NCBI GenBank assembly: GCA_964571795.1
Contig: CAZNDK010000002.1
Coordinates: 47,466-111,465 of the forward strand
Reading direction: 5' to 3'
Source of the DNA: an uncultured Gemmatimonadaceae bacterium
Lineage (GTDB): Bacteria > Gemmatimonadota > Gemmatimonadetes > Gemmatimonadales > GWC2-71-9
Length of the DNA: 64,000 nucleotides
How positions within the stretch are numbered: position 1 is the first letter of the stretch; each line of letters opens with the position of its first letter. The notes under the pieces are model-generated. The model was not told where the DNA came from. It saw only the letters and a program-made list of their open reading frames with translations, and searched no databases. Below are positions 3,384-63,995 of this stretch, in pieces. The position numbers were made by a program, and so were the translations under genes.

Positions 3384-6205
3384 CCGCACCACCACCCGGC
3401 GGCGAGCGGCCCCGGGTGTTCCTGGTGGACGGCTACGCCCTGATCTATCGCGCCTTCTTCGCGATGATCACGCGCCCGCTGCGGACCGCCAAGGGGGAAA
3501 ACACCTCCGCCGCCTGGGGCGTGGCGAACTTCCTCGCGCGCCTCCTCGACACCCACCGCCCCGAGTACGTGGCGTGGGTGCACGACGCCGGGGATTCCTT
3601 CCGCACGGCCCGCTATCCCGAATACAAGTCCACCCGCGAAAAGCTCGACGAGGAACTCCAGGCGGACTTCGACACTGCAATCGTCCGCGTGACGCAGCTC
3701 CTCGCCGCGTGGCGCGTGCCGCTGGTTAGCGTCGAGGGGTACGAGGCGGACGACGTGATCGGCACCCTGGCCCGGGAGGCCGCCGAGCGCGACCTACAGG
3801 TCGTTATCGTGTCGGGCGACAAGGACTTCTACCAGTTGATCGGCCCACGGGTGGCCTTGCTCAACCCGGGGCGCGGCGGCCCCGGGGCGGTGGAAGAGGT
3901 GTATGTGGACGAGTCGAATGCCGCCGAGCGGCTCGGGGTGCCGCCCCGCCAGGTGGCGGACTACCTGGCACTGGTCGGCGACAGCTCCGACAACGTGCCG
4001 GGCGTCAAGGGCATCGGCGACAAGGGCGCGCGGCAGCTGCTCGAGGAGTACGGCGATCTCGAGACCATCCTGGCGCGGGCCGCCGACGTGACCGGCAAGC
4101 GGGCCCGCGAGGCGCTCCTCGCGCAGCCCGAGCAGGCACGCCTGTCCCGCGAGCTGGTCACCATCCAGACCAACGTGCCGGTGGCCTTCGAGCCCGACCG
4201 CCTGGCCCGGCAGGAGCCGGACCGCGACGCGATGGCGCGGGTGCTGGCGGAACTCGAGTTCTACGGATTGGCGCGGAGACTGGGGTTGGGCGGTGAACAG
4301 GCGGGTCAGCGGGTCAGCGGGGAGGCGGAGGTTGCAGGGGCCTCCCCGCTCCTCAAGCTCTCCGACGACGCCCTCCGTGTCACCGTCGTCGACGACGCGA
4401 GTGCCCTTCCCGCCCTCGTGGCACGCCTGCGCCAGGCGCCGCTCGTGGCGCTCGACACCGAGACCACCTCGCTCGAACCGCACGACGCGGAGCTCATTGG
4501 GCTCTCGCTGGCGGCGAGCGCCACGGAGGTCTGGTACCTCCCCTTCGGGCACCGTCCCCGCGCCGGCGCGCTCGCGGCACCCGCCCCGGTGCACAACCTC
4601 CCGCCGCTCACCGACCCCGCGTGTGCGCCAGTGGCCGAGCTGCTGCGCGATCCGGGCGTGCCGAAGGCGGGGCAGAACATCAAGTACGACTGGCAGGTGC
4701 TCCGCCGCGCCGGCGTGGAGCTGGCCGGGGTCACGTACGACTCGATGCTCGCGAGCTTCGTCCTCGACCCGGGCCGCCGCTCCCATGCGATCGACGCGCT
4801 GAGCCTCGAGCACCTCGGGCGCGGTATGCGGAGCTACACCGACCTCACGGGCAAAGGGGCGTCGCAGATCCCGTTCGCCGAAGTCGATGTGGCGGACGCC
4901 GCGGCCTACTGCGGGGCCGACAGCGCCACCGTCCTGGCGCTGCACACGCTCTTCGCGCCGCAGCTGAAGGAGATGGCGCTGGCGCCGCTGCTCGATGACC
5001 TCGAGATGCCGCTCGTCGAGGTGCTGGTTGACATGGAGTGGGCGGGGATCGCCATCGACCGGCCGCTCTTCGAGCGGCTGTCGCGCGACATGGCGGGGGA
5101 GCTGGCCCGCCTCGAGGCGTCCATCCAGGCGGCGGCGGGCACGACCTTCAACCTGAACTCCCCGAAGCAGCTGGGGCAGGTGCTCTACGAACAGCACCAG
5201 CTGCCTATCCTGAAGAAGACCCGCACCGGGCCGTCCACCGACGCCGACGTGCTCGAGCAGCTGGCCGCCATGGGGCATGAGGTGCCGCGCCTCATCCTCG
5301 AGTACCGCGAACTGCAGAAGTTGCGCTCGACCTACGTCGAGGTGCTGCCCGCCCGCGTCAACGCCACGACCGGCCGGATCCACACCAGCTTCAACCAGAC
5401 GGGCGCCGCCACCGGCCGGCTCAGTTCCTCCGACCCGAACCTACAGAACATCCCGGTGCGCACGCCGCGCGGCGAGGCGATCCGGGCCGGCTTCATCCCG
5501 GGGGCGGGGTGCCTCTTCCTCGCCGCCGACTATTCGCAGATCGAGTTGCGGCTCATGGCCCACCTCTCGGGCGACCCGGCCTTCACCGCCGCGTTCCGGC
5601 AGGGCGACGACATCCACCGCCAGACGGCGGCCATCATCTTCAACGTGCCGCTCGCCGAGGTGACGGGCGAGATGCGCGCCCGGGCCAAGACCATCAACTT
5701 CGGCACGATCTACGGCCAGGGGCCGTTCGCGCTCTCCCGGCAGCTGGGCATCTCGCAGGAGGAGGCGAAGGAGTTCATCACGCAGTACTTCCAGCGCTTC
5801 AGCGGCGTCCGCGCCTTCCTCGACCGCCAGGTCGAGATCGCCCGCGAGCAGGGGTATGTCGAGACCCTCCTCGGCCGGCGCCGCTACATCACCGACATCC
5901 GCGACAAGAACTTCAACGTGCGGGCCTTCGCCGAGCGCACAGCCCAGAACACTCCCCTCCAGGGATCCGCCGCCGACCTCATCAAGGTGGCGATGATCCG
6001 CATCCATCACGCGCTCCGGCGCGAGGGCCTCCGCACCCGCATGCTGCTGCAGGTGCACGACGAGCTCGTGTTCGAGGCGCCCGAGGACGAGGTGGAGCGG
6101 GTGCGGCCGCTGGTGAAGGGCCTGATGGAGGGGGCGGCGACGCTGCAGGTGCCGCTGGTCGTGGACGTGGGCGTGGGGAAGAACTGGCTGGAGGCGAAAC
6201 GCTAG
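3380..6205 (+). CDS. polA: DNA polymerase I
   Basis: 5'-nuclease N-terminus VFLVDGYALIYRAFF. 3'-5' exonuclease ALDTETTSLEP. Polymerase motifs DYSQIELR, RARAKTINFGTIYG, QVHDELVFE. ATG at 3380 overlaps the upstream stop (ATGA). The track ORF from 2927 is an in-frame upstream extension overlapping the GWxTD gene. Confidence 0.95.
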   Translation: MTAPPPGGERPRVFLVDGYALIYRAFFAMITRPLRTAKGENTSAAWGVANFLARLLDTHRPEYVAWVHDAGDSFRTARYPEYKSTREKLDEELQADFDTAIVRVTQLLAAWRVPLVSVEGYEADDVIGTLAREAAERDLQVVIVSGDKDFYQLIGPRVALLNPGRGGPGAVEEVYVDESNAAERLGVPPRQVADYLALVGDSSDNVPGVKGIGDKGARQLLEEYGDLETILARAADVTGKRAREALLAQPEQARLSRELVTIQTNVPVAFEPDRLARQEPDRDAMARVLAELEFYGLARRLGLGGEQAGQRVSGEAEVAGASPLLKLSDDALRVTVVDDASALPALVARLRQAPLVALDTETTSLEPHDAELIGLSLAASATEVWYLPFGHRPRAGALAAPAPVHNLPPLTDPACAPVAELLRDPGVPKAGQNIKYDWQVLRRAGVELAGVTYDSMLASFVLDPGRRSHAIDALSLEHLGRGMRSYTDLTGKGASQIPFAEVDVADAAAYCGADSATVLALHTLFAPQLKEMALAPLLDDLEMPLVEVLVDMEWAGIAIDRPLFERLSRDMAGELARLEASIQAAAGTTFNLNSPKQLGQVLYEQHQLPILKKTRTGPSTDADVLEQLAAMGHEVPRLILEYRELQKLRSTYVEVLPARVNATTGRIHTSFNQTGAATGRLSSSDPNLQNIPVRTPRGEAIRAGFIPGAGCLFLAADYSQIELRLMAHLSGDPAFTAAFRQGDDIHRQTAAIIFNVPLAEVTGEMRARAKTINFGTIYGQGPFALSRQLGISQEEAKEFITQYFQRFSGVRAFLDRQVEIAREQGYVETLLGRRRYITDIRDKNFNVRAFAERTAQNTPLQGSAADLIKVAMIRIHHALRREGLRTRMLLQVHDELVFEAPEDEVERVRPLVKGLMEGAATLQVPLVVDVGVGKNWLEAKR

Positions 6206-6206
6206 G

Positions 6207-8468
6207 TTAGTCCTCCTCCTTCCGCTGCTCCCTGACCCCCGGCCACCAGTTCCAGCGCCCGGCGAGGTGCATGAACGCGGGCACCAGCACCATCCGGATG
6301 ATCGTGGCGTCGAGCAGGACGGCCACCGCCAGCCCGAAGCCGAGGAACTGCACCATCAGCACCCGCGCGAAGGCGAAGGCGCCGAAGACCAGGATCATGA
6401 CGAGCGCGGCGGAGGTGATGACCGAGGCCGTGGCCGACAACCCCTCCATCGTGGCCTCCTTGTTCCGCCCCGTGCGGTCGTAGGCCTCCTTGATCCGGCT
6501 CAGCAGGAACACCTCGTAGTCCATGCTCAGGCCGAAGACGATGGCGAAGACCATCACCGGCACCACCACGTAGATGGCGGAGGTGGGCCCGTCCAGCCCG
6601 AGCAGCCCCGCCCCCCACCCATACTGGAACACGAGCACGCTGAGTCCGAAGGTCGCGCTCACCGACAGGCTGTTCATCACGATGGCCTTGATCGGCACCA
6701 GCACCGACCGGAAGGCGATCGCGAGCATGAGGGCCGTCACGCCCAGCACGACGCCGATGAGCAGCGGGAAGACCCGCAGCAGGTCGTCCTGGAAATCGGT
6801 GGCGGCGGCGGTGTAGCCGCCGACGATGATCGTGGTGCCCTTGAGCCCGCGGATCGGCGCGTCCCGGATCGCGCGGATGTCGCGAACCAGCTGCATCGAC
6901 GTGGTAAGGGTGGTCGTGTCGGCGGGGAAGACGTCCACCAGCGCGATCCGCTGGTCGGTGCCGAGGTAGGCGTCCAGAAAGTCGCCGAGATCGGCGCGCG
7001 CGGCGGGGAGGTCGCTGTAGAGCACCGAGTACTCCAGCAGCGAGGCGCCCTTCTTCACCGTCGTCAGGCTGGTGACACGGCCCACGCGTGGGTCCGCCGC
7101 GAGCGAGTCCGTCAGGTTGCGGAGCCCGCGGAGCCGGGCCGCCGTCGTGATGGTTTCGCCCTCCGGCACTTCCACGAGCACGCGGATCGGGAGCATGATC
7201 CCCGACGCGCCCATCGCAGAAAGCGTCTCGGCGCCGCGACCCGCCTCGGTGGCGGTGGGCCACCAGTGGCGCGACGGCAGCCCGATCTTGATCAGGAACA
7301 CCGGGGCGGTGAGCAGCAGGACCCCGACCCCGCCCAGCGTGAGCGCGCGGTAGGGATGCCGGCTCAGGGAGCGCGCCCAGCGCTCCCAAATGGTCGGGGC
7401 GTGGTACCAGGCCAGCCGCCGGGCGAGCCAGCGCGGCGTGTCGATGGCGCGCCCGAGGATCGCGAGCAGGGCCGGCAGCAGGGTCGTCGACAGGAGCACC
7501 GCCACGGCGACGACCACGAGGCCGCTCAAGCCGATACTGCGAGTTTCGACCATGGGAGGAATCAGCAGGGCCGCGAAGCCGACCAGGACCGTGAGCCCCG
7601 AGGTGATGACCGCGCTGCCGGCGGTGGCGAGTGTCCGGCGGGCGGCTTCATGGCGCCGGAGGCCGCGCTTCAGCTCTTCGCGGAACCGCGTCACGATGAG
7701 CAGCGAGTAGTCGATGCCGACGCCCAGCCCGATCATCGTCGTGAGGTTGAGGACGAAGACCGACATCGGCGTGTAGAGTGCGAGGATCCCGATGAGCGCC
7801 AGGGCCACGAAGATCGCGAGGATCCCGACCGCCACCGGGAGGAGCGCGGCCACCAGCGCGCCGAAGGCGAGCACCAGGACCATCAGGGTGAGCGGCAGCA
7901 CGCGGAGCTCGCTCCGCCGGCTGTCCTCGGCGCTGACGTGCCGGATGTCCAGGTCCAGCGCGGCCCGGCCGGTCACCGTGGCCCGGTAGTCCTCGGCGTC
8001 GGGGAACGCCGCCAGCGCGCGCTGGACCGCCCGCCGGGCCGGCACCACGTACGCGCCGGCGTCCTTCCCCGGTACGCTGAGGGCGACCAGGATGAAGGTG
8101 GTGCGTCCGTTGCTGCTGATGAAGAGGGAGTCGCCGGTCGAGGCGAAGCTCAAGACGGACCGGACGTACGGTTCGCGCCGCATGCGTGCGACGAGGGAAT
8201 CCAGGATGGCCGCGGGGCCGGGCCGGTCCACCGGCACCGGAGCCTCGAAGGTGATCGCGAAGAACTCGCCGATGGAACGGCTGAAGCGCGCCTGCAGCAG
8301 CCGGTCCGCGCGGACCGCCTCGGTTTCCCGGGTGCTGCCGCCCCGGAGGTCGAGGCGCTCCGGCGTAAGCCGGGCCTGGATGACCGCGAGCGTGCCGACG
8401 ATCACCCAGAGCGCGATGACCGCCCACCGGAACTTCACGACGGCCCGCGCGAACAACTTCATCACCAC
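6207..8468 (-). CDS. MMPL/RND-superfamily membrane transporter
   Basis: 753 aa. Two multi-TM blocks, each followed by the MMPL hallmark (VGIDYSLLIVTRFREEL and GLSMDYEVFLLSRIKEAY). GTG start at 8468, with an alternative ATG at 8462. Convergent with polA across a 1-nt gap. Confidence 0.85.
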   Translation of the reverse strand: MVMKLFARAVVKFRWAVIALWVIVGTLAVIQARLTPERLDLRGGSTRETEAVRADRLLQARFSRSIGEFFAITFEAPVPVDRPGPAAILDSLVARMRREPYVRSVLSFASTGDSLFISSNGRTTFILVALSVPGKDAGAYVVPARRAVQRALAAFPDAEDYRATVTGRAALDLDIRHVSAEDSRRSELRVLPLTLMVLVLAFGALVAALLPVAVGILAIFVALALIGILALYTPMSVFVLNLTTMIGLGVGIDYSLLIVTRFREELKRGLRRHEAARRTLATAGSAVITSGLTVLVGFAALLIPPMVETRSIGLSGLVVVAVAVLLSTTLLPALLAILGRAIDTPRWLARRLAWYHAPTIWERWARSLSRHPYRALTLGGVGVLLLTAPVFLIKIGLPSRHWWPTATEAGRGAETLSAMGASGIMLPIRVLVEVPEGETITTAARLRGLRNLTDSLAADPRVGRVTSLTTVKKGASLLEYSVLYSDLPAARADLGDFLDAYLGTDQRIALVDVFPADTTTLTTSMQLVRDIRAIRDAPIRGLKGTTIIVGGYTAAATDFQDDLLRVFPLLIGVVLGVTALMLAIAFRSVLVPIKAIVMNSLSVSATFGLSVLVFQYGWGAGLLGLDGPTSAIYVVVPVMVFAIVFGLSMDYEVFLLSRIKEAYDRTGRNKEATMEGLSATASVITSAALVMILVFGAFAFARVLMVQFLGFGLAVAVLLDATIIRMVLVPAFMHLAGRWNWWPGVREQRKEED

Positions 8469-36504: not shown

Positions 36505-37421
36505 TGGAGCCACTCGCCGTGGCGGCGGACGTGCTGGTGGCGGCGGTCGGCATCGCCACGCCGCTCGCGCTCGCGGCCACCGGCGAGACCATCGCCGAGC
36601 GCTCGGGCGTGGTGAACCTGGGGATCGAGGGTGCGATGCTCTTCGGCGCCTTGGGCGGAGCCATCGGCGCCACGCTGGGTGGGCCGGCGGGAGGGCTGGC
36701 CCTCGGCGTGCTCGCCGGCGTCGCGGTCGCGGCGCTCTTTGCGGCGGTGGCGGTCGGCGCGGGAGCGGACCAGATCATCTCGGGCACCGCCGTGACGCTG
36801 GGCAGCGTGGGGCTGACGGGCACCATCTATCGGCAGTTTTACGGAGCCGCCGGCGTGGGCCTTTCCATTCCGACATTGGCCCCGGTGCCGATTCCCGGCC
36901 TGTCCGGCATCCCGCTGGTCGGCGCGGCGTTCTTCGCGCAACCGGTCACCACCTACCTGGCAATCGGGTTGATCGCGGCATCGTGGTGGGCTCTCTTCCG
37001 GACGCGGCCTGGCCTGGCGCTCCGTGCCGCGGGGGAGGATCCAGTGGCGGCGCGGGCCGCCGGCGTGCCGGTGCGGCTGACGCGGAGCGTGGCGGTGCTG
37101 TTGGGCGGCGCGTTCGCGGGGCTGGCGGGTGCGACGCTTGTCCTGGCCCAGGTCGGGACCTTCGCCGAGCGCATGACGGCGGGGCGCGGGTTCATCGCCA
37201 TCGCGATCGTCGTGCTGGGGCGCTGGAATCCGGTGGGCGCGGCGCTGGCCGCGCTGCTCTTCGGGCTGGCCACGGCGCTGCAGTTCGCCTTTCAGGCGGC
37301 GGGGCTGCGGGTGCCGTATCAGCTGTTCCTGATGTTCCCGTTCCTGCTCACGTTGCTTGCGCTGGCTGGGGTGGTCGGGCGGGTGAAGGCACCGGCGGGC
37401 TTGGGGAAGAGGGAGGAATGA
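36501..37421 (+). CDS. ABC transporter permease (BMP-system, YufQ-like)
   Basis: ATG overlaps the upstream stop (ATGA). ERSGVVNLGIEG motif. Multi-TM. Confidence 0.85.
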   Translation: MMEPLAVAADVLVAAVGIATPLALAATGETIAERSGVVNLGIEGAMLFGALGGAIGATLGGPAGGLALGVLAGVAVAALFAAVAVGAGADQIISGTAVTLGSVGLTGTIYRQFYGAAGVGLSIPTLAPVPIPGLSGIPLVGAAFFAQPVTTYLAIGLIAASWWALFRTRPGLALRAAGEDPVAARAAGVPVRLTRSVAVLLGGAFAGLAGATLVLAQVGTFAERMTAGRGFIAIAIVVLGRWNPVGAALAALLFGLATALQFAFQAAGLRVPYQLFLMFPFLLTLLALAGVVGRVKAPAGLGKREE

Positions 37422-37570
37422 GAGGAATGAGAGGAAGGAGAAAAGGACTTGGGACTTGGAGGGGAGGAATGAGAAAAGAGACAGGAGGAGGTCCGCACCA
37501 AGGCAGCCTCCTTTCTCCTGTCTCCTTCTGCCCCTCCTAGTCCCTTAGTCCCTTTCCCCTTCCTCTACTC
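37405..37570. repeat. GGACT-heptad long hairpin element, copy 1 (purine arm / loop / pyrimidine arm)
   Basis: Purine arm 37405-37491, loop 37492-37506, pyrimidine arm 37507-37565. Core GGACTTGGGACTTGGAGGGG faces CCCCTCCTAGTCCCTTAGTCC. Fills the gap between convergent stops at 37421 and 37576. Confidence 0.8.
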
Positions 37571-56197: not shown

Positions 56198-57332
<1,135 letters not shown>

Positions 57333-57343
<11 letters not shown>

Positions 57344-58904
57344 CCTCCCCGCACTCCGGCTGCCGACCCGGACCTACGCCGGGTACGCGCTGGCCCTGCT
57401 GGCGCTCCTCAACCTGCTGAGCTACGTCAACCGCAACGTGCTGTTTGCGCTGGTCCCGCCGATCGAGTTCGAGCTGGGCCTCACCGATACGCATATTGGA
57501 TGGATCGCCTCCGCCTTCGTGCTCCTCTTCTCGGTGGCGGTGTTCCCCTTCGGCGTGCTGAGCGACCTCCGCTCCCGGCGCGCCGTGGCGGCGGCCGGCG
57601 TGGTGGTCTGGAGCATCTTCGCCTTCCTGGCCGGCCTGTCCCGCGGCTTCTGGGGACTCTTCCTTTTCCGGGCGGCGGTCGGCATCGGGGCCGCGGCCTT
57701 CACCGCGGCAGCCGCCTCGCTCGTGGCCGATTACTTCCCCGGGCGCCGGCGCGCGGTGGCGCTCGGCGTCTTCTCCGCCGGCATCCCCATCGGCGGGGTG
57801 ATGGGCATCGCCCTCGGCGGGCAACTGGACGAGCTCTACGGATGGCGCATCGCCATGATGGCGGTGGCGGTGCCGGGCCTCTTGCTCGCGGCACTGGTGG
57901 CCCGGCTCACCGATCCGAGCCGCCCGCCCCCGACCCTCACGGTCCGCGAATATTGGCGGCAGCTGGAAATGGGCGCCGCCGGTGCATTCCGGACCGCGTG
58001 GCCACTCCTCCTCGGCGCGGGAGCCGGCGGCCTGGCCGCCTGGGTGCTCGACCGCCGTTTCGGAGCCACCTCCACGCTCGACATGGCGGCGCTGGCCAGC
58101 GGCATCGGCGTCGGGCTGGCGTGGAATCTCGTGCTGGTGGTCCGGCGGAACCGGCGCACCGACGGCAGCTTCGACTTTACGCCCACCGGCAGCGTCAACG
58201 ACGCCCTCACCGAAATGCGGCTCGCGGTGGATACCGTGCTCCGCACGCCTACCCTCAAGTACCTGTTCGTGGGCGGGGCGCTGGTGTCGTTCGGCATGAA
58301 CGGGCTGGTGGGCTGGGCGCCGACGTTCATGTCCCGGACGCTCGGACTCACCGTGGCGCAGGGCACGCTGCTGCTGGGTCAGTGGGGACTGCTGGCGGGG
58401 ACGGCGGGCACGCTCGCGGGCGGGTTCCTGGCGGACTGGCTGGGAAAGTTCACCGGCCGGGGGCGGATGCTGGTGTCGTCGCTCGGCCTGCTGGTGGGCG
58501 GACCGCTGGCCATCTGGCTCCTTGCTGTGCGCGACCTCGGCACCTTCGTGCCGATCTTCGCCGTGGCCTTCTTCTTCCTGACCCTGTACAACGGCCCGGT
58601 CATCGCGGCGGTGTTCGACGTGGCGCCGGCCCGGATCGGTGCCACCGTCGTCGGGGCCTACCTGCTCTTCATCCACGTGGCGGGCGACGCCATTGCACTC
58701 CCGCTCGTGGGGTTCCTGTCCGACCGCTTCGGCATCGACCGGGCCATCTTCATCCTGCCATCGGCGGCGATGGCCGGCGGCGGCGTGCTGCTGCTCGGCG
58801 TCAAGACTGTGCTGCGCGACATGAGCTTCGTGGCGGCGAGGACGACGGCGACGCACCCGGTGGTGAGGACGACAAGTGAGGGGAGGAAGGAAAAAGAGGA
58901 CTAG
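57333..58904 (+). CDS. MFS transporter
   Basis: GTG with GGGAG upstream. Overlaps the DHS gene end by 11 nt. 12-14 TM. SDLRSRR loop motif. The stop lies inside repeat copy 2. Confidence 0.85.
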
Positions 58905-59011
58905 GGACTAGGAGGGGCGGAAAGAGAAAAGAGAAAGGTGTTGGTCCGAGCGCCTCTTTTCTCCTTCCTCCTTGAACCTCTCCAAGTCCCAAGTCCTTTT
59001 TCTCCTTCCTC
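58878..59011. repeat. GGACT-heptad long hairpin element, copy 2 (inverted relative to copies 1 and 3)
   Basis: Purine arm 58878-58938 (..AGGACTAGGGACTAGGAGGGGCGGAAAGAG..), loop 58939-58952, pyrimidine arm 58953-59011 (..CTCTCCAAGTCCCAAGTCCT..). Overlaps the MFS stop and touches the csoR stop. Confidence 0.8.
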
Positions 59012-59364
59012 TATCGAGCCGACCGGTACATCAACTCCACCAACTCATCGTACATCGCTCCCGCCTGCTCCTCGCTGCCCGAGCGGATGGCGCCGGCGGC
59101 GCAGTGCTCGAGGTGGTTGCGGAAGAGCACCCGCGCCACTCCCCGCAGTGCCTCGTGCACCGACGACACCTGGGTCAGGACGTCGGCGCAGTAGCGCTCC
59201 TCCTCCACCATCTTCTGCAGCCCGCGGACTTGCCCCTCAATGCGACGGAGCCGGGTGAGCGCGGCGGCCTTGAGCTCGGGGTTCACCGCCACCGCGTGGG
59301 TGCCGTCGCCGGGGCGGGCGCACGCGCAGGGGGCGAAGGCGTCGTTGCTGGCGGTGTCCATCAT
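59011..59364 (-). CDS. csoR: CsoR/RcnR-family metal-sensing repressor
   Basis: [25 protein letters not shown]...HLEHC (Cys-His-Cys ligand pattern). ATG overlaps the copA stop. Confidence 0.85.
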
Positions 59365-62228: not shown

Positions 62229-63863
62229 ATGAGCGACCACCGCGACTCGTTCCGATCCTCCTCCGAAGGGAGCGAAATCGAGGCCCTCGATTTGAGGGTG
62301 CCTCTGCTTCGCCTCAAGGGGAGCTCGTGGGACGCCGTGGCGCTGGAGACCTGGCTGGAGGCCCTGTCGGGTCTGCTCGCGCCGGAGCTCCCGCACGACC
62401 TGATGGCGCTCTGGGTGTATCCGCCCGAGGGCCCGGCCGTGCTGATCGGTCCGTCGGCCCTCGCGCAGGACAGCCTCGAGGTGCCGACCCCTGCGCCGCA
62501 CTTGGGACAGGATGAGCTCTACACCATGGAGCAGCGCATTCGCACCGCGGGTTACGCCTCCGTGGTGTGCATGGCCGTGCCGCATGGCGACCGCGACGTG
62601 GGCCTCTTGCTGCTCGCCGACCTTCGACACGCCCGCTATGGATTGCCGGAGGCGGTGCTGCTCCGGAACGTGGCCGACTCGCTCGGGCCCACTCTGGCGC
62701 GCGTGGCGCGGCAGGGCAGGGAACCCCTCGAGCCCCCGCGCGACGACGGCTCCCCGCCGCCGCCCGAACGCCGCCGCTCGGAACCGGGCCGGAAGCTCGT
62801 CGAACTTCACGCCCTCCTGGCCAAGCTCGGCCTGGCCGAGTCGGCCTCGCGCACGCCGAGGGAGTTCTCTGAATTCGTGTCGCAGGCGCTGCAGCCGATG
62901 CTGCCCCATGATCGCATGCAGATCCTGGTGCCCGACGCGTCGGCGCAGGAGCACTATCGCTTCGACCGGCATGGCCCCGGCACCTTCTGGTCCGATCCGG
63001 CGCTGGTGGTCACGCGGGAACAGTTCGACCCCGCGGCGCTCTTCGGTGATGCGGACGAGATCCTGGTAGGCGATACCAGTGCGCAGCCGCATCATCCCGC
63101 CTGGTGTCCGGATATCCCGGGGCAGGGCAGGGGAGAGCCGCTGGCGCGCGCGGTCATCGGCGTGCGGCTGCTCTCGCAGACGCGGGTGGCGGGCTACCTC
63201 CTCCTGGGCGGCAACGGCCCCGACTTCTTCCGGCCCGACGATCTCGACCTGCTGCGCCAGGTGGCGCCGCTGGTGGCGGTGCGGGTCGACAGCTTCCTCC
63301 TCGCCTGGCAGGTGCAGGTCATGCGCTCGCACCTGAGCGTGCTCCGCAATGTGCCGGCCCACCTGGGGCGCATCGCCGAGGTGCTCGCCACCACGGCGCA
63401 CGTGGGCGCGGCCACGCGGCTCTTTGCGCGCGAGGCGGCCAGCGTGCTGCCCTTCGACCGGATGGAGTTTGCACTTCGCCTCGGCGAAGCAGACGAAGTG
63501 GTGATGGTGGCTCCGGGCGACGCCCGGCCGCTGCCCGACCTGCCGCTCGTGTCGGTGGCCGGCACCGAGCTGGGCCGTGTGCTGCGGGGTGAACTGCCGC
63601 ATGCGTACGCGTCGGCGCGCCGCCAGCTCGAGGCCGACCCAGGGACGGGGCACCCCACGGCCGCGCTGGTGGTACCGCTCCGCCTGGCGGGCCGGATCTT
63701 CGGCTGCCTGACGCTGCTGGCGGCCGGCGCCGACGCCTTCACGCGGGCCGACATCGCGCTGGCACAGCAGCTGGCGGACGTCCTGGCTCCCCACCTCGAA
63801 CTGCTCCGCCGGGCGTCGCTGTCGACGCCGCCGGTGGCGCCGGGATGGCGGAGACGGCCGTAG
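62229..63863 (+). CDS. multi-GAF-like domain protein without a recognisable output domain
   Basis: 544 aa. Three segments with the same pattern (..GLLLLADLRHARYGLPEAVLLRNVADSLGPTLARV; ..GYLLLGGNGPDFFRPDDLDLLRQVAPLVAVRV; ..GCLTLLAAGADAFTRADIALAQQLADVLAPHLELL), as at the ends of GAF domains. Confidence 0.65.
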   Translation: MSDHRDSFRSSSEGSEIEALDLRVPLLRLKGSSWDAVALETWLEALSGLLAPELPHDLMALWVYPPEGPAVLIGPSALAQDSLEVPTPAPHLGQDELYTMEQRIRTAGYASVVCMAVPHGDRDVGLLLLADLRHARYGLPEAVLLRNVADSLGPTLARVARQGREPLEPPRDDGSPPPPERRRSEPGRKLVELHALLAKLGLAESASRTPREFSEFVSQALQPMLPHDRMQILVPDASAQEHYRFDRHGPGTFWSDPALVVTREQFDPAALFGDADEILVGDTSAQPHHPAWCPDIPGQGRGEPLARAVIGVRLLSQTRVAGYLLLGGNGPDFFRPDDLDLLRQVAPLVAVRVDSFLLAWQVQVMRSHLSVLRNVPAHLGRIAEVLATTAHVGAATRLFAREAASVLPFDRMEFALRLGEADEVVMVAPGDARPLPDLPLVSVAGTELGRVLRGELPHAYASARRQLEADPGTGHPTAALVVPLRLAGRIFGCLTLLAAGADAFTRADIALAQQLADVLAPHLELLRRASLSTPPVAPGWRRRP

Positions 63864-63869
63864 ACAGGC

Positions 63870-63995
63870 GAAGGAGAAAGGGGACTTGGGACTTGGAGGG
63901 GTTCGAGGAGATAAGGAGAAATGTGGGTCGATCACCCCCGCCTCTCTCCTTCCTCTTTCCGCCCCTCCAAGTCCATAGTCCCTTTCTTCTTGACC
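63870..63995. repeat. GGACT-heptad long hairpin element, copy 3
   Basis: Purine arm GAAGGAGAAAGGGGACTTGGGACTTGGAGGGGTTCGAGGAG.. from 63870. Pyrimidine arm ..CCGCCCCTCCAAGTCCATAGTCCCTTTCTTC.. runs to about 63995. Starts 7 nt after the GAF gene stop and abuts the window end. Confidence 0.75.

Follow-up and report, generated by a model that had tools for sequence, protein, structure and literature searches.

The window, as we call the whole 64,000-nt stretch of contig CAZNDK010000002.1 (uncultured Gemmatimonadaceae bacterium) analysed here, contains a gene for a transporter of the major facilitator superfamily (MFS) that faces a csoR-type gene for a metal-sensing repressor. The entire gap between these convergent genes is filled by a long imperfect palindrome carrying GGACT heptads, hereafter the GGACT element, of which this is copy 2 in the window (Table 1). 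Its sequence can be written as GAGGGGAGGAAGGAAAAAGA-GGACTAGGGACTAGG-AGGGGCGGAAAGAGAAAAGAGAAA, a 21-nt loop and TTTCTCCTTCCTCCTTGAACCTCT-CCAAGTCCCAAGTCC-TTTTTCTCCTTCCTC; GGACTAGGGACTAGG is followed by AGGGGCGGAAAGAG, and CCAAGTCCCAAGTCC is the reverse complement of GGACTTGGGACTTGG. A hairpin with heptad pairs had been described at this position in the initial annotation, and both the inverted-repeat search and RNA folding confirm it. The two 54-nt arms are 80% complementary and lie 21 nt apart, and the predicted folds reach -78.9 kcal/mol (z = -6.0) on the plus strand and -75.3 kcal/mol (z = -5.3) on the minus strand, values matched by none of 200 shuffles on either strand. On both strands the heptad stem is directly followed by TTTTT, in a genome of ~70% GC; the G+C content of the window is 69.7%, a background against which the A/T-containing purine and pyrimidine tracts are conspicuous. 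When copy 2 was scanned for the terminator consensus, the sole flag was a small inner hairpin (58936-58955).

The MFS reading frame enters the purine-rich arm, where it finds its last codons and its TAG stop. At the other edge of the element, the pyrimidine arm ends with base 59011, which in plus-strand coordinates also opens CTA and so, read in the direction of csoR, is the last base (G) of the TAG that ends this gene. Both overlaps had been pointed out previously, with the suggestion that coding sequence was recruited from, or invaded by, the repeat. As described below, comparison with orthologous loci upholds this view for the MFS gene and not for csoR.

Table 1. Coordinates of the GGACT elements and of the genes at the MFS/csoR junction
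Feature	Position in the window	Strand	Evidence
GGACT-heptad palindromic element, copy 2	58878-59011		inverted repeat, RNA folds, nhmmer match 58883-59011 at 114.6 bits
Purine-rich arm of copy 2: GAGGAAGGAAAAAGA, GGACTAGGGACTAGG, AGGGGCGGAAAGAGAAAAGAGAAA	58883-58936	+	sequence, inverted-repeat search
Heptad pair GGACTAG-GGACTAG-G, core of the stop-bearing 'B-type' arm	58898-58912	+	motif count
Loop/spacer, unconserved between copies, with small inner hairpin	58937-58957		alignments, terminator scan
Pyrimidine-rich arm of copy 2: CCAAGTCCCAAGTCC (58982-58996), then TTTTTCTCCTTCCTC	58958-59011	+	sequence, motif count, inverted repeat
MFS transporter gene (PF07690); conserved part ends ...THPVV at ~58865	57333-58904	+	reading frame, family match, orthologues
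Element-derived MFS end: codons EGRKEKED and TAG (58902-58904, inside the first heptad)	58878-58904	+	reading frame, orthologue tails
csoR-type metal-sensing repressor gene (PF02583); native TAG stop at 59011-59013	59011-59364	-	reading frame, family match, orthologues
GGACT element, copy 1; arm order opposite to copy 2	37403-37570		alignment, nhmmer
GGACT element, copy 3; begins 4 nt past the TAG of a GAF-domain gene (62229-63863), near the window end	63868-63994		motif count, nhmmer

Gene ends and hairpins at orthologous MFS/csoR junctions

The best 60 MFS orthologues were aligned, and the tails of the 19 closest (77-100% identity) were compared. In these 19 proteins the conserved sequence stops at ...RTTATHPVV and is followed by tails of 1-13 residues that vary in sequence. 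The window was then set beside the DNA of eight orthologous loci (fetched loci are designated by L numbers), giving nine junctions that share the same synteny, namely, deoxyhypusine synthase and MFS genes facing csoR and copA. Three of the nine carry the GGACT element: the window, with the tail EGRKEKED and the heptad stop GGAC-TAG-GG; L036, with EGMKEKKD and GGAC-TAA-AGG; and L040, with EDGEGRKRT and GGACT-TGA-GG. In all three the MFS stop is the T[AG][AG] of a heptad, at the heptad's variable position, and the element spans from a few codons past HPVV to the csoR stop. L037 and L041 have instead a palindrome of ~80-105 nt built of GCGGGGAA octads, at the first base of which the MFS gene stops (tails RVP and VVKT). 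L038, L039, L043 and, weakly, L042 have a short GC-rich hairpin in a spacer of 26-49 nt, with the MFS stop in or beside the loop and tails that include PLSSGAAGQ and PLGRGAAGQ.

Tails rich in E, G, K and R are thus confined to the three junctions with the GGACT element, and unrelated tails are found elsewhere; no EGRKEKED tail was seen at an orthologous junction lacking the repeat. Since the charged tail occurs only where the element occurs, the MFS tail is, as judged from these junction sequences, derived from the element. The opposite notion, that the purine tract is a genuine conserved MFS C-terminus which by chance takes part in an inverted repeat, has the open reading frame itself in its favour and nothing further. 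It is refuted by the tail and junction comparisons, as the tail is not conserved in orthologues without the element, the inverted repeat and the motif counts lie far above those of shuffles, and unrelated loci and other genomes contain the same sequence; we give it virtually no credence. By contrast, CsoR terminates in R[SN][AV]R and its TAG comes at one and the same place in all nine loci, whether or not they carry the element. The one-base overlap between the arm and the csoR stop is therefore real as a matter of position, yet recruitment on the csoR side finds no support in this invariant end: by the same comparison the csoR stop is native and the overlap incidental, arising only from one additional C-G pair by which the inverted repeat chances to be extended. 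Because CsoR orthologues are called at 112-123 aa, csoR may in truth begin upstream of 59364.

In at least eight of the nine junctions the slot between the two genes holds some hairpin (three GGACT elements, two GCGGGGAA-octad palindromes and three or four short GC hairpins), an argument that a hairpin is needed there. When the MFS proteins were placed on a neighbour-joining tree (one protein, no support values), the window and L036 came out as sisters and L040 grouped with the short-hairpin lineages. The former placement is consistent with one acquisition of the element in the common ancestor of the window and L036; the latter gives a lead, and only that, towards either several replacements or a second gain of the element in this slot. 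Between the window and L036 the element is 76% identical, compared with 84-85% for the flanking coding DNA, and both junction copies keep strong hairpins (-81.6 and -88.4 kcal/mol). The junction comparison reveals replacement of the whole spacer rather than a clean pair of filled and empty sites, and no remnant of the alternative hairpins was found at the element-bearing MFS/csoR junctions. From sequence comparison, then, the history of the junction looks like replacement of a resident hairpin and not like simple insertion.

One could go further and regard the MFS/csoR slot as an exchangeable hairpin cassette, with palindromes of short tandem units homing to resident 3'-end hairpins and taking their place, conceivably through gene conversion or template switching where hairpins are extruded. 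Such a 'mobile terminator', as opposed to a cut-and-paste element, and hence an undescribed route of mobilization, would fit because three unrelated hairpins share the interval, the GGACT element apparently arrived twice, no target-site duplication is evident and the arm type flips between loci. We nevertheless consider this scenario unlikely. The octad palindromes themselves represent a second dispersed family (AGGCGGGGAAGCGGGTCAGCGGGGAGGG ... CCCGCTTCCCCGCC): besides the MFS/csoR slot (L037:4545-4650 and L041:3051-3132), unrelated loci carry it too, L003:7380-7420 in the form of tandem GCTTCCCC units and L001:7415-7480 as a hairpin.

The GGACT repeat family

A search of GTDB contigs (one genome per species) with the arm 20-mer GGACTTGGGACTTGGAGRGG yielded 35 loci, of which 33 belong to metagenome-assembled genomes (MAGs) of Gemmatimonadales/Gemmatimonadaceae, one to a MAG labelled Thermoanaerobaculia and one to Flavilitoribacter, where the heptad hairpin is looser. 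One MAG has 12 exact matches to the 20-mer. In metagenome contigs, a stricter 25-mer found five loci, mostly orthologues of loci already known; this probe was too specific, and its power was inadequate for assessing a preference for 3' ends. No match to the family was found in viral contigs. The locus in the Thermoanaerobaculia-labelled MAG (L001, JBGARM010000147.1) combines a GGACT half-element with the GCGGGGAA-octad hairpin, both typical of Gemmatimonadales MAGs, and this contig may be mis-binned. In Flavilitoribacter nigricans (Bacteroidota; L010:7730-7845), the only non-MAG match outside Gemmatimonadales, the hairpin is likewise made of short tandem units, with GGACTTGGGACTTGG and further on repeats of CTCCTTGT; it could be a chance match, or a design that arose convergently and without relation to the family.

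An nhmmer profile built from 18 aligned full-length copies recovered 21 full-length and ~20 partial or half copies in the window and the fetched loci. Copies are ~125-165 nt long, and for the 21 full-length ones the folding energy ranges from -63 to -94 kcal/mol, whichever strand is folded. In the consensus, the outer purine tract (GAGGAAGGAGAAA) leads into a pair of GGACTTG heptads, which in some copies becomes three or four; GGAGGGG(C/T)(G/T)GAAGG and another purine tract come next, and beyond the loop lies the complementary pyrimidine arm. In the 18 aligned copies the arms are conserved and the loop of ~15-30 nt is not. In the partner arm the outer heptad often has 8 nt or A in place of T (GGACTAGG, GGACTTAAGG, GGACTTGAGG). 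The tandem GGACTWG units, numbering from two to four, are the best-conserved portion of the element, and standard pairing accounts for 93% of cells in the outer and heptad stems. Internally deleted or half copies also exist (L025, L016/L024, L028:7234-7315 and L001). In four further half copies (L020:900-960, L023:700-740, L027:6560-6600 and L034:2770-2810), the purine arm alone is present and is followed by three to four (T)TTTCGTG units in place of the complementary arm, which suggests that the repeats are modular.

No Rfam family reached the gathering threshold anywhere in the window, and the matches far below threshold were to models of plant and animal microRNA precursors, as expected of any generic long hairpin. 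Full-text literature searches, with the motif and for work on repetitive extragenic palindromic (REP) sequences and miniature inverted-repeat transposable elements (MITEs) in Gemmatimonadetes or Gemmatimonadota, returned nothing on the GGACT element, and the listed papers on REPINs (REP doublets forming hairpins) and RAYT genes contained no mention of 'Gemmatimon'. Copies are retained at orthologous sites in four groups (copy 2 and L036; copy 1 and L025; L018, L021 and L031; L006, L007 and L032), although the flanking proteins are only ~80-90% identical between species. Collectively, these data give good support to a dispersed, non-coding, near-palindromic repeat family of Gemmatimonadales that is mostly vertically inherited. 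The family is apparently undescribed, yet it is of the familiar REP-, REPIN- or MITE-like kind of bacterial repeat.

Within the window, the double-heptad motif GGACTWGGGACTWGG occurs five times against 0.2 expected, a count reached by none of 100 shuffles. The five matches define three elements, the last of which (copy 3) was not mentioned in the initial annotation. Copy 1 likewise contributes to a gene end, as its outer purine tract provides the last codons (..REE) and the TGA of an upstream permease-like open reading frame (ORF) ending at 37421. This ORF ends in ...GLGKREE, and its orthologue in L025 (~2540-2620) continues to a heptad TAA (...GKQEEGERD); the L025 copy is internally deleted and its arm order is flipped relative to copy 1.

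Copy 2 had been reported to have its arm types swapped relative to copy 1, and this is reproduced with the profile oriented on the GGACTTGG arm, which scores copy 1 at 115 bits on the plus strand versus 90 on the minus strand, and copy 2 at 115 on the minus versus 96 on the plus strand. The corollary that copy 2 was inserted in the opposite orientation holds as a description of the sequence and is poor evidence on insertion events or function. Arm type is set by few positions, TTG versus TAG/TAAG in the heptads and CGGAA versus TTGAA further in, and arm order has flipped between orthologous loci twice (copy 1 versus L025, and L003/L047 versus L045). Folding energy showed no consistent difference between strands across copies (Wilcoxon p = 0.23). 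Nor did a hand tally reveal a bias in which arm faces the upstream gene, the GGACTTGG arm coming first in three tandem loci and the other arm in five. Strand asymmetry as a sign of selection on one RNA strand was rejected; in a hand comparison of tandem contexts, the transcribed strand folded better than its complement in five cases and worse in two. Since the element is nearly palindromic, its arm type flips between orthologous loci and both strands fold equally well, orientation is labile and probably without functional meaning.

Genomic contexts were classified by frame analysis and by eye, with orthologous loci collapsed and two contexts left unresolved. The 14 distinct contexts comprise five convergent, eight tandem and one divergent (L002, between gene starts). 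At least one gene 3' end adjoins the element in 13 of these 14 loci, compared with a random expectation of ~75%, numbers too small for significance. About seven of ~24 inward-facing genes stop inside the element and the remainder 1-17 nt before it. Read-in is not limited to the MFS gene: in L028, three consecutive genes have element-encoded tails (...EREGRRGT, ...GLEDGEGT and ...KERTEG). The three elements of this locus lie within 2.4 kb (4962-5099, 5805-5931 and 7234-7315), each after a minus-strand gene; by eye, two of the genes resemble methionine gamma-lyase and the C-terminus of glycyl-tRNA synthetase. The third element, a short one, has five TCAGTCC (GGACTGA) heptads flanking it. We also considered a design in which the heptad shift (7 = 1 mod 3) would make the arms a three-frame stop cassette, and rejected it, as the arms have no more stop-closed frames each than composition-matched shuffles do (GGACTTGG arms, 1.17 versus 1.89 shuffled; partner arms, 1.50 versus 1.65).

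In L006:3700-3715, L007:3170-3185 and L032:6610-6632, which are orthologous loci, the element is followed by TATATT, 6 nt and the next ATG, with no Shine-Dalgarno sequence; the N-terminus of the downstream gene resembles IspG by eye. To judge from the sequence, this looks like a promoter for a leaderless mRNA set directly against the hairpin. The copy in L014 lies between what by eye are two apparent tRNA genes, and a separate small perfect palindrome, GTTTCCATAGACAGTCTATGGAGAAAC, is found beside the divergent-context copy (L002:7075-7105).

Proposed role of the element

In architecture and population behaviour the closest match to the GGACT element is the REPIN. REP doublets or REPINs of Pseudomonas and enterobacteria consist of inverted units with a less conserved spacer and form a hairpin of ~100-130 nt; they are extragenic, present in many copies per genome, largely vertically inherited and persistent at orthologous sites, often at gene 3' ends (PMC3116915, PMC3337134). 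The GGACT element similarly has two conserved inverted arms and a variable loop that form one long hairpin, is extragenic and multi-copy (three in 64 kb), and is vertically retained. However, it cannot be counted among REPINs by the defining feature that we tested, because its arms, almost homopurine and homopyrimidine and thus without self-pairing, cannot themselves be palindromes, whereas each REP is itself a short imperfect palindrome, and because the consensus has no conserved 5' tetranucleotide of the GT[AG]G type. Its arms are, moreover, built from tandem heptads, and it belongs to a different phylum. REPINs are also marked by a cognate single-copy gene for the Y1 transposase RAYT, flanked by the repeats; no such gene was seen beside the GGACT copies examined.

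Further non-coding inverted repeats of 100-160 bp include the Correia elements (CREE/NEMIS) and MITEs such as ERIC, RUP and SMAG. Correia-type elements are co-transcribed with their neighbours, form long RNA hairpins and can alter ORF ends; they are also marked by duplication of a TA target site and by defined terminal repeats akin to those of an insertion sequence. The GGACT element resembles this group in size, hairpin, potential for co-transcription and the altered ORF end, but at its sites no target-site duplication is evident by eye and the whole spacer has seemingly been replaced. No insertion sequence with the termini of the GGACT element was seen in the window or the fetched loci. Rickettsia palindromic elements insert in frame within ORFs and are read through; like them, the GGACT element is a palindromic repeat that contributes amino acids to a host protein, whereas the MFS ORF merely enters its edge and terminates there, replacing a non-conserved tail. 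An integron attC site, which would belong to an array of co-oriented cassettes near an integrase, was dismissed: the element is bounded by neither RYYYAAC nor GTTRRRY cores, and it lies between converging core genes in conserved synteny (deoxyhypusine synthase and MFS facing csoR and copA).

We favour the view, with a probability of about 60%, that the GGACT element is a dispersed REP/REPIN- or MITE-like repeat that at this junction gives two convergent transcripts a common 3' hairpin. The reasons are that the slot is nearly always occupied by a hairpin and that each strand has five consecutive T right after the heptad stem; the positional argument, that nearly every lineage keeps a hairpin between MFS and csoR, is the strongest one for a role. 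According to this model, the element has taken a slot held by other hairpins in related lineages, thereby removing the earlier end of the MFS frame, so that the MFS gene now reads eight codons into the purine arm and stops at the TAG of the first heptad, csoR keeping its own stop. Both convergent mRNAs would include the element at their 3' end, and whichever strand is transcribed would yield a hairpin of ~54 bp and then a short U-run, which could act as a shared bidirectional terminator, as an exonuclease barrier or other structure protecting the 3' end, or as both. A bidirectional terminator would be in keeping with the GC-rich stem and with the A-rich tract on one side and the T-rich tract on the other, between converging stops.

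Several observations weigh against a shared 3'-end hairpin. Intrinsic terminators have a stem of 5-15 bp and a loop of 3-8 nt, and a stem of ~54 bp with a 21-nt loop is far outside that canonical range; in most copies the U-run is also interrupted. At the eight tandem loci the next ATG lies only 12-46 nt past the element, and therefore no tight terminator can be expected there unless a promoter overlaps the element; such copies would lie inside an operon transcript or overlap the next promoter. The L002 copy is located between divergent gene starts, and the overall 5/8/1 tally of contexts does not depart significantly from what random placement in intergenic DNA would give. The stems show weak covariation, with double changes in five of 25 pairs, about as many as in shuffles, and the complementarity of the inner stem is no better within copies (-26.1 kcal/mol) than between copies (-26.0 kcal/mol; permutation p = 0.46). 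Neither a target-site duplication nor a flanking direct repeat was seen by eye, in a scan that was not systematic, and no associated transposase was found, the genes around the copies examined being ordinary housekeeping genes. A transposase between two nearby L028 copies was considered and discarded, since that gene and the two flanking ones look ordinary and cellular, by eye and with no family search. As for compensatory evolution of the inner stem, it is unsupported, but the test is powerless with low-complexity purine and pyrimidine arms. With G-U pairs counted, a purine tract can pair with whatever pyrimidine tract it meets; this makes the hairpin mutationally robust and covariation uninformative either way.

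Some of the same observations would be expected of a purely selfish or neutral palindromic repeat that survives in short spacers by gene ends, where its insertion is tolerated, the read-in of the MFS gene being harmless collateral. Weak covariation, the internally deleted and half copies, the context tally, the copy in a divergent promoter region and the faster divergence of the element than of flanking coding DNA at the junction shared with L036 all point in this direction. Yet retention at orthologous sites across species, the presence of some hairpin in the same slot in nearly every lineage, and the stability of the hairpin, which is kept despite drift in arm sequence, are harder to reconcile with neutrality, and we regard this explanation as possible but doubtful.

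A post-transcriptional role would place the effect in the mRNA, the stop-proximal double-stranded stem tuning the upstream gene as an RNase III substrate or a staller of ribosomes. There are precedents for both modes, as Correia elements of Neisseria have been reported to be RNase III substrates and stop-proximal REPs in E. coli to stall terminating ribosomes. Gene stops fall from -17 to +35 nt from the element edge, ~7 of them inside the stem, the imperfect duplex of ~54 bp forms on both strands, and the copies inside tight tandem spacers are likely to be co-transcribed with their neighbours. Stop proximity may, however, simply reflect very short intergenic spacers, and we think such a role quite improbable. 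Even less probable, in our opinion, is an element that acts at the DNA level, as a cruciform or a site for gyrase or a nucleoid protein between converging units, with the heptads as binding units. E. coli bacterial interspersed mosaic elements (BIMEs) have been proposed as gyrase or nucleoid-protein sites between converging transcription units, and the best conservation of GGACTWG units that vary from two to four in number, together with the five distinct convergent loci, would agree with a similar arrangement. On the other hand, most loci are tandem, no candidate protein was identified, and the many G-U pairs of the stem, tolerated in RNA, are weaker mismatches in DNA.

Implications and neighbouring features

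The GGACT element embodies no new principle, REP, REPIN and MITE elements of similar behaviour being well known, but the present analysis gives a name and boundaries to a repeat family of Gemmatimonadales, a soil lineage that is mostly uncultured and has been little studied. For annotation, the family explains many Gemmatimonadales proteins that end in short, non-conserved tails rich in E, G, K and R as repeat read-in and not as genuine, conserved C-termini. Furthermore, the nine-way comparison of the MFS/csoR junction constitutes a natural experiment on the turnover of 3'-end hairpins, which can be used for asking whether such hairpins are functionally interchangeable.

Two further features of the MFS gene were observed. 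Just upstream of the element, its 3' coding region contains a 15-nt direct repeat (GGCGGCGAGGACGAC and GGTGGTGAGGACGAC; 58832-58873) with a spacing of 27 nt. At the other end, the MFS start (57333-57343) overlaps the end of the deoxyhypusine synthase gene (56198-57343) by 11 nt, and since the same overlap recurs in the orthologous loci, the two genes are probably translationally coupled.

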